Assembly (NCBI GenBank): GCA_944326465.1
Contig: CALVEB010000004.1
Location: 21,717-85,716, forward strand
Direction of reading: 5' to 3'
Source of the DNA: Candidatus Gastranaerophilales bacterium
GTDB taxonomy: Bacteria > Cyanobacteriota > Vampirovibrionia > Gastranaerophilales > Gastranaerophilaceae
Length of the DNA stretch: 64,000 bases
Part shown: positions 11,168-56,295 of the stretch, one piece after another
How the letters are laid out: each line of letters opens with the position of its first letter
Position numbering within the stretch: position 1 is the stretch's first letter
Notes under the pieces: generated by a model
Database searches by the model: none
What the model saw: the letters and a program-made list of their open reading frames with translations, nothing else
Told to the model about the DNA's origin: nothing
Position numbers and translations under genes: made by a program

Positions 11168-11244
11168 TGGGGCGTCTGATGGGATTCGAACCCATGCATA
11201 TCGGAACCACAATCCGAGGTCTTAACCGCTTGACGACAGACGCC
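11168..11244 (-). tRNA. tRNA-His (anticodon GUG), with G-1 and an encoded CCA
   Basis: The reverse complement GGCGTCTGTCGTCAAGCGGTTAAGACCTCGGATTGTGGTTCCGATATGCATGGGTTCGAATCCCATCAGACGCCCCA folds as a cloverleaf. The acceptor stem is GCGTCTG/CAGACGC, the anticodon stem is TCGGA/TCCGA with loop TTGTGGT, and the T-arm is ATGGG-TTCGAAT-CCCAT. The extra 5' G pairs with discriminator C, which is the tRNA-His hallmark. Confidence 0.9.
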
Positions 11245-23689: not shown

Positions 23690-23925
23690 ACCCTCTCCAA
23701 GGGGCGAGGGGCGGACGTAGTCCGCTCTTATACACTAGACACCCGCTAGAGGCACACAAAGTGTGCTCCTACACACTGGACACCCGCAAAAGTTAACGGG
23801 CATCCAGTATATAAAAGTGGACTGTGTCCACTCGCAAGGCGCCGACTCCCGCAAATCGTAGCAAAACTGCTGCGGTATGACGGATAAAAAACATGCAACG
23901 TGGAAAATCTCACAAGCATGTTTTT
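23690..23925 (+). repeat. Array of GC-rich modules: a variable perfect hairpin plus a conserved tail
   Basis: GCGGAC-gta-GTCCGC followed by tcttatacactagacacccgc. GGCACAC-aaa-GTGTGC followed by tcctacacactggacacccgc. GTGGAC-tgt-GTCCAC followed by tcgcaaggcgccgactcccgc. Two more hairpins share the loop cgtggRRaatctcaca (23891-23921 and 23979-24010). Confidence 0.7.
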
Positions 23926-23926
23926 A

Positions 23927-23963
23927 GGGGAATAAGGGATTAAGGAAATAAGGGAATAAGTTC
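23927..23963 (+). repeat. Octamer tandem repeat with TAA every 8 nt
   Basis: GGGGAATAAGGGATTAAGGAAATAAGGGAATAAGTTC, with TAA at 23933, 23941, 23949 and 23957. Confidence 0.8.
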
Positions 23964-24034
23964 TTTACAAAAAATAAGGCAACGTGGGGAATCTCACATT
24001 GCCCTATTTTGAAATCCTCTTAATCACTTAGTCA

Positions 24035-24151
24035 CTGTCTTGGATTTGCTCCACGCTCACGGAGACTCGCCTAAGGAGCGTTGCTCCAGTCGGCTCGTTC
24101 CGTTCGCTATCCGGACTCGCTACGCTCCGTCCGTCCGCAAATCCGCTAATC
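24035..24151 (+). repeat. 117-nt GC-rich core repeat, copy A (intergenic)
   Basis: 115 of 117 nt are identical to 46215..46331 by direct comparison. The ends are complementary (GGATTTGC...GCAAATCC) and there is an internal hairpin GGAGC-gtt-GCTCC. Confidence 0.9.
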
Positions 24152-24184
24152 ACTTAATCACTTCGAACTAAGAGGCCAAGCCTC

Positions 24185-25336
24185 TTAGTTCGACACACAT
24201 ATAGCGCGGCGGTTGCTGTTGTTCTTGAAGTACCAGATATTGTCATTGCCGGTCGTGTCGGAAGTGTCGAAGTACCGGTAGTACGCGGTAAGCGCATTGC
24301 GCTCCTCACTGGACCAGTAGTGGTAGCCAAGAGTAAGGGGAGGATTATCTTTGTATTCGTCCTTTACTTTAAGACCTAATTTGTCTTCGTTTGCTCCTAT
24401 TGTTACTTCATTGCCGTTGCTGTCTACATATAAATTACTTGCCAGTTGCGCAAGTTGTGCTCTCGTAGGAAGTTCCATGTCTTTATCTTTACATGCTTTT
24501 ATCGCTCCTGCCCAATAATTGGTTGAGCATCCACTGCTTGTATAGTTCTTATCATATTCACTTGTGCCATCACATGTGTCGATAGGGGTGTTTGCGGCAA
24601 AATCTGTGCTAAAGCACATGTCGCCTATAGGGTTATCGCAAGTAGAAAACGCTACACCTGATGATAATTCAATATCTTTTCCAACTCTATTAGGGCCTTT
24701 CTTTCCGTTTACATCTACCATATATGCCATGCAGCTTACCTGACTTCCTGTATCTTCTATTGGATCAGCGTAAGGGCATTCCGGCTGATATGCCATAATG
24801 ACTGTTGTCCCGTCTGCTACTACAAAGCTCATGGTATTTGTATTAGTTTGCCATTCCTTTAATCCCATGCTGCTTGCAGAAGTGAGACCGTTTGTTTCAA
24901 TTTCTTCTAACGCATCGTTCTTACCTGTTGTGACAACTTTAGGTGAATAACATTTGTTGATGTCATCCTTGTCACAGGTTTTGATTACTTTCATGTAGTT
25001 TTTGAAAGTGTTCATGAAATCCTCTGTAGTATCGTGTCCTGTCATTACACCGTCTACGTTCATACGGCGTACGGTTTCAGTGAGTTTCTTTTCCCACAGG
25101 TCTTTTGCTGTAGACCATGCTTTTTCATTGTGGTTCTGGATGAGACCAGGAAGGGTTAACGCGGCAACGATGCCGATAACCGCGAGGGTTATTAGGACTT
25201 CAGCCAAAGTGAATGCTGCTTTAGCGTGCGCCTGAGTGTAAGAGCGGGCTTGTCCACCTTTAGCGGTTGCCCGAGCGTAAGAGCACACTTGTGTGCCTTC
25301 TGCTAACGTAAATGCGTAATTTTCTGTTCTAGTCAT
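24185..25336 (-). CDS. Type IV pilin-like protein P2 (prepilin-type N-terminus, DUF1566-like C-terminus) with a 99-nt in-frame repeat insertion in the leader
   Basis: MTRTENYAFTLAEG-[insert]-AAFTLAEVLITLAVIGIVAALTLPGLIQNHNEK...VDVNGKKGPNRVGKDI...NYWAGAIKACKDKDMELPTRAQLAQLASNLY. RBS AAGGAGG. Confidence 0.7.
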   Translation of the reverse strand: MTRTENYAFTLAEGTQVCSYARATAKGGQARSYTQAHAKAAFTLAEVLITLAVIGIVAALTLPGLIQNHNEKAWSTAKDLWEKKLTETVRRMNVDGVMTGHDTTEDFMNTFKNYMKVIKTCDKDDINKCYSPKVVTTGKNDALEEIETNGLTSASSMGLKEWQTNTNTMSFVVADGTTVIMAYQPECPYADPIEDTGSQVSCMAYMVDVNGKKGPNRVGKDIELSSGVAFSTCDNPIGDMCFSTDFAANTPIDTCDGTSEYDKNYTSSGCSTNYWAGAIKACKDKDMELPTRAQLAQLASNLYVDSNGNEVTIGANEDKLGLKVKDEYKDNPPLTLGYHYWSSEERNALTAYYRYFDTSDTTGNDNIWYFKNNSNRRAICVSN

Positions 25337-45480: not shown

Positions 45481-45804
45481 TTAAAGTAAATCATTTGTAA
45501 TCTTGTATAAAAAGCGTAATTTATTTTGGTCAGTCTCAATTATTTTTATATTTTTCAGTATTTTTTCCAAATACTCCTGATTTGTGAAAAAATCCTGAAA
45601 GTTATATAAATCTTTTTCTTCTACATTCAAAGCGGCCGCTATTTTTTCAAGGTTTTCAGGTGAGGGATAATTCCTGCCGGTTTCTATTTTGCTCAAGCTT
45701 GAGATGTCAAGTCCCAGTATTTCAGAAAAATTTTCCTGCGTAATACCTTGTGATTTTCGAAGTGATTGTATGCGTTTGCCAAGTTTAATTTTTAAGTTAG
45801 TCAA
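45481..45804 (-). CDS. XRE-family HTH transcriptional regulator (TTG start)
   Basis: LGKRIQSLRKSQGITQENFSEILGLDISSLSKIETG. Paralog of 9537..9866. AAGGAG lies 6 nt before the TTG. Divergent from P4. Confidence 0.85.
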   Translation of the reverse strand: MTNLKIKLGKRIQSLRKSQGITQENFSEILGLDISSLSKIETGRNYPSPENLEKIAAALNVEEKDLYNFQDFFTNQEYLEKILKNIKIIETDQNKLRFLYKITNDLL

Positions 45805-45854
45805 AATTTGCTCCTTATTAAGATTTTAAAATATATAAAAATATTTTTAATGTA

Positions 45855-45917
45855 TTGTTAGGCAATTTTATACTTGACAATAATGCTTAATAATCATAAA
45901 ATAGTTTTGTTAAGCAA
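45855..45917 (+). promoter_or_regulatory. P4 promoter flanked by repeated TTGTTA(G/A)GCAA sites
   Basis: TTGACA (45874-45879), 17-nt spacer, TAAAAT (45897-45902). TTGTTAGGCAA lies at 45855-45865 and TTGTTAAGCAA at 45907-45917. Confidence 0.5.
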
Positions 45918-45934
45918 AATAAGGAGTCAAAAAT

Positions 45935-47380
45935 ATGTCTAATAATGCATCTACAAAGTATGCTTTCACTCTCGCGGAAGGCAGGGTGGACAAAGTCCAC
46001 TTTAATACTTGGAAAACTGCTAAAGGTGGACAAATCCAAGACATCGAACGCGAAGGCAGGCTAGCCTGCACCACCACTCAGGCGCCCGCAAAAGCGCAAC
46101 GGTGCCAATACGTCATTGCGAGCGAATGCGAAGCAATCCAGCCTATTGAAAAAGCGGGATTAGAACAACAGAATACGGGACTAATTCATGTAAAGAACTT
46201 ATTCCCTTATTTCCCTGTCTTGGATTTGCTCCACGCTCACGGAGACTCGCCTGAGGAGCGTTGCTCCAGTCGGCTCGTTCCGTTCGCTATCCGGACTCGC
46301 TTCGCTCCGTCCGTCCGCAAATCCGCTAATCCCTTATTCCCTTGTAGTAAACGCGTCGCCTTCACTCTCGCCGAGGTCCTCATCACCCTCGCGGTTATCG
46401 GCATCGTTGCAGCACTCACATTACCGGGGCTCATCCAGAACCACAATGAAAAAGCTTGGTCTACCGCGAAAGACCTCTGGGAAAAGAAACTCACAGAAAC
46501 CGTCCGCAGAATGAATGTCGACGGCGTAATGACCGGTCACGATACAACAGAAGCCTTCATGAACACTTTCAAAAACTATATGAAAGTAATCAAAACCTGT
46601 GATAACTCTGAGCTTAATAAATGTTACAGTCCGGAATTTGTGTTGACCGGTAAAAGAGATAATTTAGAGAAAAAATATATAGAAGATTTCAAAACAGCAG
46701 GTGACTTAGGAATAACAGATTGGAATACTAATACAATATCATTTGTTGTTGCAGATGGTACAACAGTTATTATGGCTTATAATCCAAAGTGTCCTTATGC
46801 AGATCCAGTTGAAGATACTGGCAGTCAAGTATCTTGTATAAGTATGATGATAGATGTAAACGGCAAAAAATCTCCTAACCGCGTTGGTAAAGATATTTTG
46901 CTCTCTAATGCAACCATTTCCACCTGCGATAATCCGATAGGAGATATGTGTTTGAGTACATCTTTAAAAATAGAAAAGATAGATACTTGTGACGGAACAA
47001 GTCCCTATGATTCGTTTTTTTCGTATGATAATGTAGGAAATGCTTGTGAAAATAATTACTGGGCAGGTGCTGTAAAAACTTGTAAAGACAATAACATGGA
47101 ACTGCCGACCGGTGCGCAATTTGCAGAAATAGCAAATAATTTATATGTAGACCGTAATGGTGACCCGATAAAATTAAAAGTAAACGGCAATAAAAGTAAT
47201 ATAAAATTTAAGGATGAATACAAAGACAATCCTCCTATTGCTCTTGGTAATTACTGGGTAAATGACGATCAGGGGTCGTTCGCAAGGATGCATTATTTTG
47301 GAGGAGAGAGTACCAGCGGAAACAGTAGTACTTCTAAACATAACAGTGCAGCCCGCAATGTTCTATGTATTTCAAATTAG
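45935..47380 (+). CDS. Type IV pilin-like protein P4 (DUF1566-like C-terminus) with a 396-nt in-frame repeat insertion splitting the prepilin leader
   Basis: MSNNASTKYAFTLAEG-[132 codons of repeat DNA]-VAFTLAEVLITLAVIGIVAALTLPGLIQNHNEK...IDVNGKKSPNRVGKDI...NYWAGAVKTCKDNNMELPTGAQFAEIANNLY. RBS AAGGAG. Confidence 0.65.
   Translation: MSNNASTKYAFTLAEGRVDKVHFNTWKTAKGGQIQDIEREGRLACTTTQAPAKAQRCQYVIASECEAIQPIEKAGLEQQNTGLIHVKNLFPYFPVLDLLHAHGDSPEERCSSRLVPFAIRTRFAPSVRKSANPLFPCSKRVAFTLAEVLITLAVIGIVAALTLPGLIQNHNEKAWSTAKDLWEKKLTETVRRMNVDGVMTGHDTTEAFMNTFKNYMKVIKTCDNSELNKCYSPEFVLTGKRDNLEKKYIEDFKTAGDLGITDWNTNTISFVVADGTTVIMAYNPKCPYADPVEDTGSQVSCISMMIDVNGKKSPNRVGKDILLSNATISTCDNPIGDMCLSTSLKIEKIDTCDGTSPYDSFFSYDNVGNACENNYWAGAVKTCKDNNMELPTGAQFAEIANNLYVDRNGDPIKLKVNGNKSNIKFKDEYKDNPPIALGNYWVNDDQGSFARMHYFGGESTSGNSSTSKHNSAARNVLCISN
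46215..46331 (+). repeat. 117-nt GC-rich core repeat, copy B (inside the P4 reading frame)
   Basis: 115 of 117 nt are identical to 24035..24151. It is flanked by reverse-orientation octamers (cttattcccttatttccc and aatcccttattccctt). Confidence 0.9.
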
Positions 47381-53177: not shown

Positions 53178-53289
53178 ATCCTTATAATTTTCTTATAATT
53201 CGTATAACTAAAAGATAACACAAAAACTTCAGACAGTGAAGTGTTAACTTTCTTTATTTTTTATTGACACATTATTTTTTTTGCCTTAG

Positions 53290-53437
53290 TCTGAGGTCAG
53301 AGGAAATGAAGTGGAGATCTTCAACTGTAGCCGCAGCCGTAAAAGTCGGAACACTCGAAGAAAAGCTTTGGTCACGTGCTTTTTGACCATAGACAAAATC
53401 TTTTTTTCAGTGTCCTCTAAGAATAGAGGATTTTTTT
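53290..53437 (+). promoter_or_regulatory. Candidate cis-regulatory RNA or sRNA ending in an SD-sequestering hairpin plus T-run
   Basis: TCCTCT (53413-53418) pairs with AGAGGA (53425-53430). That AGAGGA is the only SD-like sequence, 8 nt before ATG 53439, and it is followed by T7. A second AGAGGA at 53299-53304 could compete for the TCCTCT. Additional hairpin GGTCA...TGACC at 53370-53388. Confidence 0.35.
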
Positions 53438-54214: not shown

Positions 54215-55720
54215 ATGAACATAACACCGTTTCATGATAATGAAACAGCAAGACAGCAAAGAAATTTAACAACAACGCAAAAACGCGCTAATTCTAATAC
54301 AAAAGAGGGTGTTCTTGTAAATAATTTTATAAAAGATGCAGATACCTGTGTTAATCTTGATAACACTGTTGATACACTGATTATATCAGATCGTGTCAAG
54401 CTGCCGCAAAAGCTTAATGAAGATAAAATAGTTAAAGATAAAACTCTTCTACCGATAAGCGGCGCGGCGTTAGGTGTAATGGGAGTATTTGCAGGAATCA
54501 CGGCGTTTATCAGTCATAACACAAAAATTGCCACCAATATGGCAAAGAATATGATTAAAGAAAAATGGCTGCCTACTCTGACGCGTAATATATCTATAAA
54601 CGATGAAACATCACAGGCGATATTCCAGATGGTTACAAACCCTAACCGTAAAACGATTATTGCGGGTGTTGGGGTGTTTTCGCTCACGGCGACTGCATTT
54701 ATGGGAAAAACTTTCTTTGACGGGTTCAAAGATATCTGGGTTAAAAAGCGCGAAGCGGATATTCAAAAAAACTTGCAAGAGCAGCTTATTGATGTAGAAA
54801 CCCAGTCCTTTTCAGGCAAAATCCAGATTATAAGAAACACCCTGTCTGACAAAGCAAAAGAGTTAAATAAATATATAGCGGAAGAAGATGAAGCAATCCT
54901 CCCGAATTTTGGTAAATCCACTCAAATTGCGTTTATGGGCGGTAAACAGCAATCGTATAATGAGAAAAAAGCAAGTCCGCTGGCGTTTTTTGCGCTTGGG
55001 GCGGCAACTGTTGCGGGAATTATAGGGCTTTCTTATCTGTCTTTAAAGAATTTAAGTAAAAGTAAAGGGCATTTAAGAGATTATATATCATATACTGAGG
55101 ACATCATCAGTAAAGTTGTCAAAAATTCAACAGAGCAAACAAGAAAGCAGGACAGTGAAAATCTTGCGTTTCTTTTCCAGTCAATAGACGCATCGCCTGA
55201 AACAATTAAGCGGCTTATGGAAGGTATCAAATGGGAAAAGCCGGAATTTGTGAATGATTTTATAAAAAATACTGTATCTAAAATTCAAACATCAGCGGTT
55301 AAGGTGAATTCGCACATTGGCGGTGACGGAACGCCAAAACCTGCGTTTTCATCGTTTGTTGATGATTACAGGGCGTTTTTATACAACTGGCTTTTAGATA
55401 CTGATAATGCGCAATTCCGTCAGCTATTCTTCGGAATGACCGGTGCAGCGGCTGTTTCTTATGGCGGTAAGCTTGTAGGAGATGCTATAAAAGAAGTTCA
55501 GGTCAAGAAAATCAATGCGCAAACCGAGCTTGATTTGCAAAAACGGCTTGTATCAACCGAGTTACGCAACTTTAAATCTAAAAAAGATGCGGCAATTCAG
55601 CCGCTTATGGAGGAATTCTATAAGCAGGTGCAGAACGGCAAGCCTAAAGAGCAGCTTAAAACAATGGCGGACAACATTCTGTTTGAAGTCAAAAACGGCC
55701 CGCCGTTTGTATATTCTTAG
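54215..55720 (+). CDS. Uncharacterised multi-pass membrane protein (501 aa)
   Basis: ORF with several hydrophobic segments (LLPISGAALGVMGVFAGITAFI; IIAGVGVFSLTATAFMG; LAFFALGAATVAGIIGLSYL; LFFGMTGAAAVSYGG). Confidence 0.6.
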   Translation: MNITPFHDNETARQQRNLTTTQKRANSNTKEGVLVNNFIKDADTCVNLDNTVDTLIISDRVKLPQKLNEDKIVKDKTLLPISGAALGVMGVFAGITAFISHNTKIATNMAKNMIKEKWLPTLTRNISINDETSQAIFQMVTNPNRKTIIAGVGVFSLTATAFMGKTFFDGFKDIWVKKREADIQKNLQEQLIDVETQSFSGKIQIIRNTLSDKAKELNKYIAEEDEAILPNFGKSTQIAFMGGKQQSYNEKKASPLAFFALGAATVAGIIGLSYLSLKNLSKSKGHLRDYISYTEDIISKVVKNSTEQTRKQDSENLAFLFQSIDASPETIKRLMEGIKWEKPEFVNDFIKNTVSKIQTSAVKVNSHIGGDGTPKPAFSSFVDDYRAFLYNWLLDTDNAQFRQLFFGMTGAAAVSYGGKLVGDAIKEVQVKKINAQTELDLQKRLVSTELRNFKSKKDAAIQPLMEEFYKQVQNGKPKEQLKTMADNILFEVKNGPPFVYS

Positions 55721-55752
55721 AAGGGAATAAGGGAATAAGGAAATAAGGGAAT
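55720..55752 (+). repeat. Octamer array (GGGAATAA-type); left arm of a 33-bp imperfect inverted repeat
   Basis: GAAGGGAATAAGGGAATAAGGAAATAAGGGAAT, with TAA at 55728, 55736 and 55744. It abuts ATG 55753. Confidence 0.8.
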
Positions 55753-56295
55753 ATGTGTATTCAAGCGATAAATACAACTTATAACAATCAAATCTGTCAA
55801 ATAAGAAATAGTTTCATAAATGAAACGAACTTATTCCCCTATTCACCTATTTCCTTATTCCCTTCTGATTCTTCTTCAGTCAAATATGTTACATCCACTA
55901 CATCAAACTACTGTTCCTTTAACCAGCCTAAAGTGGATTACTTTGTTAAACAAAAGGAACAGGCGCTGCCGTATTTGACAGATATTCTCCAACACTCCAA
56001 TAATGAGGCTCAAATAACAGAAACATTATATATAGTAGACAGAATGATTGAAAACGGCACTAAAGGCGTTGATAAGATGTATCCGACACTTTCCCGCTTT
56101 AATAATACTAATTCACCGTTTATACAGACATTTCTTGCCGGAATATACAGAAAAATACAGGTTCCGGACGCATTTGGCCCTCTGGTTGCCATGTTAATAC
56201 GCAATTCTCTTAACCCTCCGCAAACAAATTTCGATCCGAATGAAGAGGTCGGAGGTGCAATACTGGCCTACCTTTCAGACCGTTTTAGACATTGA
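55753..56295 (+). CDS. Hypothetical protein; the C-terminal half is weakly HEAT-like helical
   Basis: 180-aa ORF. Codons 27-38 are encoded by the reverse octamer array (NLFPYSPISLFP). The start is uncertain. Confidence 0.4.
   Translation: MCIQAINTTYNNQICQIRNSFINETNLFPYSPISLFPSDSSSVKYVTSTTSNYCSFNQPKVDYFVKQKEQALPYLTDILQHSNNEAQITETLYIVDRMIENGTKGVDKMYPTLSRFNNTNSPFIQTFLAGIYRKIQVPDAFGPLVAMLIRNSLNPPQTNFDPNEEVGGAILAYLSDRFRH
55830..55865 (+). repeat. Reverse-orientation octamer array; right arm of the inverted repeat
   Basis: CTTATTCCCCTATTCACCTATTTCCTTATTCCCTTC. Its reverse complement matches 28 of 33 positions of the left arm. Confidence 0.8.

Follow-up and report, generated by a model that had tools for sequence, protein, structure and literature searches.

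EL1, a probable structure-defined mobile element of Gastranaerophilales, and its sites in pilin leaders and tRNA T-arm-like sequences

The 64,000-nt stretch of Candidatus Gastranaerophilales DNA analysed here (the window) raises the question of why one sequence of little more than 100 nt should occur in it twice, almost unchanged, once between genes and once within a gene. The segments singled out by an earlier note, 24035–24151 and 46215–46331, are indeed present on the same strand with two mismatches, lie 22,180 nt apart and are far richer in GC than their surroundings (0.61–0.62 versus ~0.36 for the window). The GC skew of the window is too ambiguous for a replication-strand bias to be read from it. 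Homology between the segments spans 24032–24163 and 46212–46343 at 95% identity according to a repeat finder, and a 30-mer of the repeat core occurs twice in the window versus 0 times in 100 shuffles. Family comparison together with empty sites set the limits of the exact unit at 111 nt (TGTCTTGG...AAATCCGC), with 109 of the 111 positions identical between the copies. As the earlier note had described, one copy is intergenic and the other coding. Copy 1 lies in 520 nt of intergenic DNA, with a GerE-type regulator gene on one side and a minus-strand ORF (gene A), facing it with its 3' end, on the other; copy 2 lies within a second ORF (gene B; Table 1). Our reading is that the repeat is probably a mobile, non-coding and non-autonomous element, defined by its structure and with no gene of its own, which we call EL1.

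Table 1. Features of the window that bear on EL1.
Feature	Position	Strand	Details
tRNA-His gene with plain terminator	11168..11243	-	Empty counterpart of the tRNA-His plus element composite in locus L052 (comparison with L052)
Two hairpins (23890-23922 and 23976-24005), mosaic modules	23890..24005	+	Stems unlike, loop CGTGGRRAATCTCACA in both; 2 matches versus 0.06 expected
GGGAATAA-type octamer array with GTTCTTTACA	23928..23969	+	Inverted counterpart of 46182-46214 (repeat comparison)
Left octamer repeats, copy 1	24020..24035	+	TTAATCAC TTAGTCAC (sequence)
EL1 copy 1, 111 nt, intergenic	24036..24146	+	Model R1 128.7 bits, E 1.4e-35; orthologues in L004/L005 with a 78-nt nested insertion
Right octamer repeats, copy 1	24147..24163	+	TAATCACT TAATCACT T (sequence)
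Perfect hairpin over the gene A stop codon, between gene A and copy 1	24163..24193	-	Terminator-like (sequence); not called by a consensus terminator scan
Gene A, prepilin-type protein, 383 aa	24185..25336	-	N_methyl motif (PF07963) at aa 39-61
Promoter-like site TTGACA-17-TAAAAT, 11/12	45874..45902	+	Upstream of the gene B start codon and AAGGAG ribosome-binding site
Gene B, paralogue of gene A, 481 aa, 142-codon leader with copy 2	45935..47380	+	N_methyl motif at aa 142-162
Small GC-rich palindromic module GTCATTGCGAGCGAATGCGAAGCAATCC, another gene B leader insert	46112..46139	+	Only partly present in the homologue L130
Left octamer repeats, copy 2	46198..46215	+	CTTATTCC CTTATTTCCC; same array without the element in L008 and L130
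EL1 copy 2, 111 nt, in the leader-coding part of gene B	46216..46326	+	Model R1 128.7 bits; translated VLDLLHAHGDSPEERCSSRLVPFAIRTRFAPSVRKS
Right octamer repeats, copy 2	46327..46343	+	TAATCCC TTATTCCC TT (sequence)

A dispersed family in gut and rumen relatives

The earlier note had called for a search for further copies, and this search turned up more than 100, scattered through other assemblies. Species-representative genomes, scanned for an exact 21-mer, showed the element in two Gastranaerophilales MAGs, one copy lying within a pilin leader in the same frame and the other between genes, flanked by TAATCACT-type octamers. Metagenome contigs scanned with a 19-base probe, the 5' block TGTCTTGGATTTGCTNNNCGCT, yielded 118 loci, ~10 of which are chance matches in GC-rich DNA; true family members have the invariant blocks TGTCTTGGATTTGCTCCACGCTC, TCGCTATCCGGA and TCCGTCCGCAAATCCGC in common, with variable hairpins in between. 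A covariance model built from the family alignment (R1) recognized ~95 strong copies (roughly 75–130 bits) in 100 metagenome loci and 7 copies in 9 Gastranaerophilales loci. With filters off, the same model matched both copies in the window and nothing else there above noise, the next match scoring 11.8 bits. Lengths range from 100 to 125 nt and are a multiple of three in just 25 of 80 elements.

Searches of existing catalogues gave no match to EL1. Specifically, Rfam 15 identified only a tRNA and an AdoCbl-II riboswitch in the window at gathering thresholds, and nothing on EL1 in 20 element-bearing loci at E values up to 0.1, on which grounds a known RNA family was dropped as an explanation. 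A literature search with the EL1 terminal sequences found no match, and the reviews of MITEs and repeats that were consulted mention no small element that targets the tRNA T-loop. An origin from phages or plasmids was abandoned in the same way, as neither blastn against phages and plasmids nor an exact-pattern scan of viral contigs gave a match. EL1 is a previously uncatalogued family, and among the relatives of the window organism from gut and rumen it is common. If this is correct, an abundant and strongly structured family, of which a single 19-base probe retrieves more than 100 copies, has been missed by RNA and repeat catalogues, and its presence accounts for anomalous GC-rich islands, and for many ORF calls that are spurious or too long, in Gastranaerophilales genomes from gut and rumen. 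With the family model, EL1 can be masked or tracked in metagenome-assembled genomes.

A fold conserved through compensatory change and insertion without target duplication

The architecture of EL1 is that of a closing stem, GGATTTGC/GCAAATCC, around two branches: a long bipartite helix with a variable hairpin cap, and a second hairpin. The branches are joined by unpaired invariant blocks (TCCACGCTC, TCGCTATCC and GTCC), and the termini are fixed (5'-TGTCTTG ... CGC-3'), so placed that the 8-bp inverted repeat of the closing stem is subterminal, 6 nt from the 5' end and 2 nt from the 3' end. Invariant blocks left unpaired where helices meet could also belong to a functional RNA. Two of the pairings proposed from the window alone are real, the complementary ends being family helix P1 and the internal hairpin GGAGC-gtt-GCTCC being family helix P4. 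The third, a long-range pairing GGAGCG/CGCTCC, was rejected, given that 45% of its cells pair, the same level as in shuffled and slid controls.

The fold of EL1 is conserved through compensatory change. Across 69 distinct sequences and the five-helix structure, with column shuffles and slid partners as controls, 93.5% of cells are paired, versus 79.1% in column shuffles and 28–40% with slid partners. Covariation, on which the earlier note had staked its helices, is plentiful: 336 cells are changed on both sides versus 94 expected, compensatory changes occur in 18 of 31 pairs, and covariation is strong in four of the five helices. No variation is seen in the closing stem P1, in part an effect of the probe, by which the 5' strand of this stem was fixed.

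The earlier note had also suggested strong constraint on a structured RNA or DNA element. This covariation upholds a structural constraint, though not specifically on an RNA: the near-absence of G-T/G-U pairs on either strand and the prevalence of 3-nt loops fit DNA hairpins at least as well. Helix pairs comprise 1948 Watson-Crick, 17 G-T and 35 A-C combinations, wobble making up only ~1–2% of pairs on either strand, and the loop that caps P4 has 3 nt in 45 of 69 sequences. Such a pattern is expected where hairpins have to form in DNA, or on either strand, and would be unusual for an RNA family. The A-C mismatches outnumber G-T, a weak bias of the kind expected were the minus strand an RNA, and the fold of the minus strand is the more stable one (-50.3 kcal/mol, z -2.4, versus -38.2 kcal/mol, z -1.6, for the plus strand), which leaves some room for a minus-strand RNA.

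That the element moves was among the explanations raised for the near-identity of the window copies, and it is supported by filled and empty orthologous or paralogous sites, a nested insert, tandem copies and wide dispersal. In the leader of one pilin gene, locus L006 is without exactly the 111 nt that L002 and L008 have, and the flanks are identical save for one T-to-C change at -1. Arrays of the TTATTCCC type stand without EL1 in L008:10070 and L130, at sites homologous to the one that EL1 occupies in gene B. The copy 1 locus has orthologues in L004 and L005 that are identical to the window through flanks and element, and that carry in addition a 78-nt GC-rich insert in helix P5; this insert begins GTCTTGCTCG and represents a second family, EL2, which shares the terminus ...CAAGACA (minus strand) with EL1 and occupies EL1's junction in other loci. 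Three EL1 copies lie head-to-tail in L108. An end-to-start junction of the circle type would read ...GCAAATCCGC|TGTCTTGG....

EL1 is thus present or absent at otherwise identical sites, and it inserts without target duplication at Y|T. Among 80 distinct sites, a pyrimidine occupies position -1 in 76 and T occupies position +1 in 63, with a weaker downstream preference for T(C/G)(G/A)A(A/C)C. No duplication was seen in the empty and filled pair formed with L006, nor at T-loop sites, where TTCGA|AT is split with neither gain nor loss of a base.

Almost pure Watson-Crick helices and loops mostly of 3 nt liken EL1 to the substrates of HUH-type systems (IS200/IS605, REPIN/RAYT) or to folded att sites. 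We infer that EL1 travels in the form of a folded single strand, most probably of DNA, and that a trans-acting recombinase or transposase would recognize the folded core together with the termini. A tblastn search with one IS200 TnpA and one RAYT query, low in both sensitivity and sampling, found no HUH transposase in 797 kb of locus fragments, and no recombinase gene was found near the window copies. ORFs around atypical copies in L042 and L128, inspected as a possible autonomous parent, included nothing transposase-like, and no long element with EL1 ends was seen in the loci examined. Our confidence in any particular transposition chemistry for EL1 is low, and the family poses the question of which enzyme recognizes the branched fold and joins it at the T-loop.

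tRNA-linked copies and likeness to known systems

The commonest identifiable home of EL1 in relatives is a T-arm-like GGTTCGA|AT within a partial copy of a tRNA 3' end. About one third of the 102 copies analysed verifiably split such a partial copy, ~100 nt downstream of an intact tRNA, the flanks representing the two halves of a tRNA T-arm plus the acceptor 3' strand, divided at TTCGA|AT. Expressed as repeats, again about one third of the 102 elements have an exact 12–83 nt repeat of a tRNA 3' end 84–116 nt upstream, most with the intact tRNA beside it. The repeat that follows the element is exact over 12–23 nt and occasionally over 54–83 nt, and the intact tRNA of the same kind ends ~70–100 nt upstream of the element. 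Thirteen tRNA amino-acid types were found beside elements overall. Although these flanks resemble a split tRNA, a bacterial tRNA T-loop intron was rejected because none of the 102 copies interrupts a complete tRNA (with the element removed, ARAGORN found no tRNA across the junction) and because the intact tRNA is located upstream.

Read in the tRNA sense by sequence inspection, the tRNA-linked layout is, in order: the intact tRNA; a terminator; a decayed copy, in inverted orientation, of the T-arm and acceptor region, ending ...GAGAAC; a short stable hairpin; the T-stem 5' strand with TTCGA; the element; and the exact repeat of the tRNA 3' end. CCA follows the repeat of the working tRNA, and does not follow the displaced one, in at least four loci (L023, L052, L112 and L021). 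The tRNA-linked loci belong to relatives of the window organism. L052 is syntenic with window genes at 66–96% protein identity; its composite of tRNA-His and element has an empty counterpart in the window (Table 1).

Simple insertion of EL1 leaves this architecture unexplained, namely the duplicated tRNA 3' end, the new terminator, the inverted pseudo-T-arm and the hairpin, and so the transposing unit may be larger or the mechanism different. The composite may arrive in one event, or EL1 and EL2 may colonize a pre-existing decoy T-arm, and no described mechanism fits all features. A new mechanism behind the tRNA-linked form is a substantial possibility. The boldest reading, which we consider clearly less likely than not, would make EL1 and EL2 the folded cores at which an undescribed kind of mobile element, found in these non-photosynthetic relatives of cyanobacteria, recombines. 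Such an element would home to a tRNA T-arm, rebuild the working tRNA 3' end upstream of itself (sometimes with CCA, always with a new terminator) and leave behind the displaced 3' end, a pseudo-T-arm in inverted orientation and a stable hairpin of the GNA/GNRA type, whether by single-strand recombination or by tRNA-templated reverse transcription. The order of the parts suggests that the mechanism leaves the target tRNA whole, and T-arm homing with rebuilding of the tRNA 3' end, if true, would be a mechanism with no described counterpart.

Several known systems resemble EL1, and with each of them membership fails or stays undecided on at least one defining feature. In integrative elements at tRNA genes, the att core is the tRNA 3' end from the T-loop onwards. 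The tRNA-linked copies are alike in having an intact tRNA followed by a direct repeat of its 3' end that starts in the T-loop, with a proximal repeat that can carry CCA without a distal CCA and with imperfect similarity 5' of the T-loop. By contrast, the whole composite is only ~200–220 nt long and has no integrase, thirteen tRNA types are involved in closely related genomes, and EL1 or EL2 sits exactly inside the would-be crossover region. The boxes of integron attC sites (RYYYAAC ... GTTRRRY) are absent from EL1, whose termini are TGTCTTG ... CCGC. From a classical MITE it differs by the lack of a target-site duplication, its 8-bp inverted repeat, being subterminal, giving an ambiguous match to MITE ends, and from IS608 by the lack of two similar subterminal hairpins.

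The host lineage is sister to Cyanobacteria, which have small dispersed repeats (SDRs, the subject of Elhai et al. 2008). SDRs are 21–27 nt long, and some lie within heptamer arrays. In the case of the cyanobacterial SDR5, insertion into a short iterated motif is precise and free of duplication (PMC4390886), and STRRs are short tandem 7-nt arrays near gene starts (TAACTGA heptamers; PMC4679880). EL1 is instead 100–125 nt long with a complex fold, is found with arrays of 8-nt units and has no sequence similarity to either. Rickettsia palindromic elements, ~100–150 nt long, self-folding and dispersed in an AT-rich genome, have repeatedly inserted in frame into genes without loss of the ORF (PMC10969869). 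In-frame, ORF-preserving leader insertions of EL1, in three cases with only the host frame open, offer a functional resemblance only: there is no sequence relation, the phylum is another, coding insertions of EL1 are confined to a presumably removed leader peptide, many members occupy tRNA-like sites, and family lengths are under no constraint to be divisible by three. Nested and clustered insertions occur among REP/REPIN (RAYT) elements and IS200/IS605-derived PATEs (PMC3116915), which, like EL1, are small, non-autonomous, hairpin-defined, thought to move as single-stranded DNA and free of target duplication. Unlike a REP doublet, EL1 has a branched fold of five helices and no GTAG/CGTC tag, its target appears to be Y|T in a T-arm-like context in place of a strict 4–5 nt motif, and the search for HUH genes described above, weak as it was, found none.

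Pilin leaders, octamer arrays and competing readings

Both window copies adjoin genes of one prepilin-type family, a context that goes beyond the earlier note, which had recognized that one copy lies in a coding frame. Genes A and B are paralogous (72–77% DNA identity, in inverted orientation), and in both a methylation and cleavage motif is followed by a hydrophobic helix (AFTLAEVLITLAVIGIVAAL). PF07963 scores 22.6 bits on gene A (cut-off 21.2) and 19.6 bits, just under the cut-off, on gene B, each time at the second FTLAE; in neither gene is the motif at the N-terminus. Gene A begins MTRTENYAFTLAEG, followed by ~30 extra codons and a second AFTLAE, and the duplicated AFTLAE-coding stretches around this 30-codon insertion (25297–25315 and 25198–25216) differ at synonymous sites only. 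Gene B begins MSNNASTKYAFTLAEG, followed by ~125 extra codons that hold copy 2, with AFTLAE-coding stretches at 45962–45980 and 46358–46376. A near-consensus promoter and an AAGGAG ribosome-binding site precede its first ATG, and inspection of the sequence revealed no in-frame start codon just 5' of the second FTLAE.

A search with the gene B N-terminus retrieved more than 4000 relatives, many with a normal short leader (for example MKKLKVKAFTLAEV...) and many others with several kinds of in-frame GC-rich inserts between the start codon and the FTLAE helix, making the leader of this pilin family a hot spot for many GC-rich modules. EL1 accounts for three independent leader insertions in the same orientation and reading frame, in gene B, in L002/L008 and, as a 102-nt variant, in L098. 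In each of these leaders only the pilin frame is free of stops, which has a chance of ~0.001 in the case of gene B, whose leader is 426 nt long. A family-wide selection for coding compatibility was rejected, given that lengths are generally not multiples of three and open frames vary; the in-frame state therefore reflects a filter on leader insertions and is not a property of the element.

The leader of type IV prepilins is removed by prepilin peptidase. Copy 2, being located in the leader, would be expected to be cut off with it, and on the simplest reading the pilin leader would serve as a safe harbour, as the peptide ahead of the FTLAE helix is removed. Copy 2 would persist in gene B because it lies in this removable part, is 111 nt long (a multiple of three) and has no stop codon in the host frame, so that a ribosome that starts upstream still arrives at the true N-terminus of the pilin. 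This reading presupposes that a prepilin leader as long as 142 residues can be processed, which is a point against it. Copy 1 would be a neutral intergenic insertion. If this is correct, the cleavable prepilin leader and the decoy tRNA T-arm both appear to tolerate selfish DNA.

Octamer direct repeats bracket both window copies and differ between them, of the TAATCACT type at 24.0 kb and of the TTATTCCC type at 46.2 kb, as the earlier note had observed. This holds for the entire window subfamily, every copy of which lies within an 8-nt direct-repeat array of TAATCACT/TAGTCACC or TTATTCCC types; in L098 the array is of the TAGTGCCC/TACTGCC type. In L129, an element and pilin gene identical to those of gene B stand behind a different upstream mosaic that has no start codon, and some such pilin genes may for this reason be silent.

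Three other accounts of the pair start from this shared setting or from its local oddity. The repeats and octamer arrays could form a domesticated switch of pilin expression, in which recombination or slippage of modules swaps or inactivates pilin 5' ends (phase or antigenic variation). The adjacency of both copies to paralogous pilin-type genes agrees with this, as do the inverted module pairs that link the 24 kb and 46 kb loci, the hot-spot character of the leader, the altered mosaic of L129 and the frameshift that a changed number of 8-nt units in a coding leader would cause. We nevertheless consider a switch quite unlikely, since many family members are unrelated to pilins and lie beside tRNA genes, arrays have only 2–4 units, homologues show no variation in unit number, and no recombinase gene was found nearby. 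A segmental duplication or gene conversion from which both the paralogous pilin genes and the two copies stem, with no independent insertions, is very improbable. Each copy does lie within 250 nt of one of the two paralogues; yet the genes are only 72–77% identical versus 98% for the element, the element lies 3' of gene A in antisense and 5' of gene B in sense, octamers of different types flank the copies, and gene B homologues without the element exist (L008:10070 and L130). Gene conversion, which the earlier note had entertained, fails for the pair because of the same divergence of the neighbouring genes and the same difference in side and orientation. An assembly artefact or chimeric join in one copy, likewise raised there and to which the high local GC content might point, is scarcely credible: the same junctions occur in independent assemblies, those of copy 1 in L004 and L005 and those of copy 2 in L129 (100% identity). 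The duplication and artefact readings are thus already contradicted, by empty sites and by shared junctions.

A broader alternative casts EL1 first and foremost as a structured RNA with a function (for instance as a small RNA, ribozyme, processing signal or tRNA-mimic partner), with dispersal secondary and the tRNA-linked copies transcribed with or just after the tRNA. Compensatory changes in the helices and invariant nucleotides at the junctions speak for it, together with the better fold of the minus strand, the identity of that strand with the tRNA-sense strand in most tRNA-linked copies and the excess of A-C over G-T on the plus strand. We regard it as unlikely all the same. Wobble pairs are scarce on either strand, copies occur in both orientations relative to tRNA fragments and genes, inside ORFs, in tandem and with another element inside helix P5, some sites have the element and otherwise identical ones do not, and no Rfam family matches.

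Octamer arrays also occur without an element, at 23928–23969 and as an inverted pair at 55.7 kb. Arrays, conserved-loop hairpins and small palindromes together make up mosaics that differ between strains, and mini-hairpins of the GCGAAGC type are found in the neighbouring modules.

Duplicated leader segments in the pilin-type genes

The leader insertions of genes A and B, two paralogous prepilin-type genes, are each bracketed by a duplicated stretch of 18-19 nt encoding AFTLAE. The two gene A copies of this stretch differ by four mismatches, synonymous in every case, and an empty/filled pair is available at the protein level among homologues, P0103 being without the insertion and P0089 with it. 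The AFTLAE duplication looks like a long target duplication that would be maintained by protein-level constraint.

In the contig L129, the upstream mosaic (L129:1750-2000) is wholly unlike window 45800-46197, although the element of the folded mobile family EL1 and pilin gene B are identical. This mosaic contains a truncated EL1 3' end together with a conserved-loop hairpin, and the M...FTLAEG start is absent from it. The 5' region of gene B is rearranged between strains. The leader of another pilin-type gene carries a 16-nt tandem duplication, TTTGGAAGCTTGGAGG x2, directly 3' of the start codon (L098:230-265, minus strand).

Features located in the window and in related loci
Feature	Location	Strand	Description
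AFTLAE-coding stretch, gene A	window 25198-25216 and 25297-25315		two copies
AFTLAE-coding stretch, gene B	window 45962-45980 and 46358-46376		two copies
EL2	L004:11191-11379, L070, L128, L020		~78-95 nt; reads GTCTTGCTCG...CGTTAAACGG...
Hairpins	window 23890-23922 and 23976-24005		unrelated stems, identical 16-nt loop CGTGGRRAATCTCACA
Small GC-rich palindromes	window 46112-46139; L042:2270-2310		GTCATTGCGAGCGAATGCGAAGCAATCC and GTCATTCTGAGGCACAAAGTGCCGAAGAATCC
Octamer arrays	window 55715-55764 and 55821-55866		inverted pair, GGGAATAA-type
AdoCbl-II (cobalamin) riboswitch aptamer	window 53287-53364	+	37.3 bits, slightly over Rfam gathering score

A second element family and the tRNA-linked composites

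The second family, EL2, has in common with EL1 both the ...CAAGACA terminus and the T-loop junction that it uses, and EL1 can itself receive an EL2 insertion. In four of the tRNA-linked composites (L023, L052, L112 and L021), CCA lies 3' of the tRNA 3'-end repeat belonging to the intact tRNA, and the displaced downstream repeat is without it; this distribution hints at a CCA-bearing source for the rebuilt tRNA end.

Small modules and octamer arrays

Hairpins and terminators with a common loop may constitute a further class of small module; the terminators of the tRNA-linked loci likewise have a common loop, ATGACATTTGTTAT, on covarying stems. Both tabulated small palindromes contain a GCGAAGC mini-hairpin, and palindromes of this kind give rise to spurious peptides such as VIASECEAIQ.

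The arms of the inverted array pair at 55.7 kb are 84% complementary and are separated by an AT-rich spacer of 72 nt, with no EL1 element present. Elsewhere, a called gene of 226 codons (L008:376-1056) is made up of repeat modules throughout: arrays of octamers, one copy of EL1 and runs of G. It is probably a spurious ORF arising from stop-poor GC-rich repeats.
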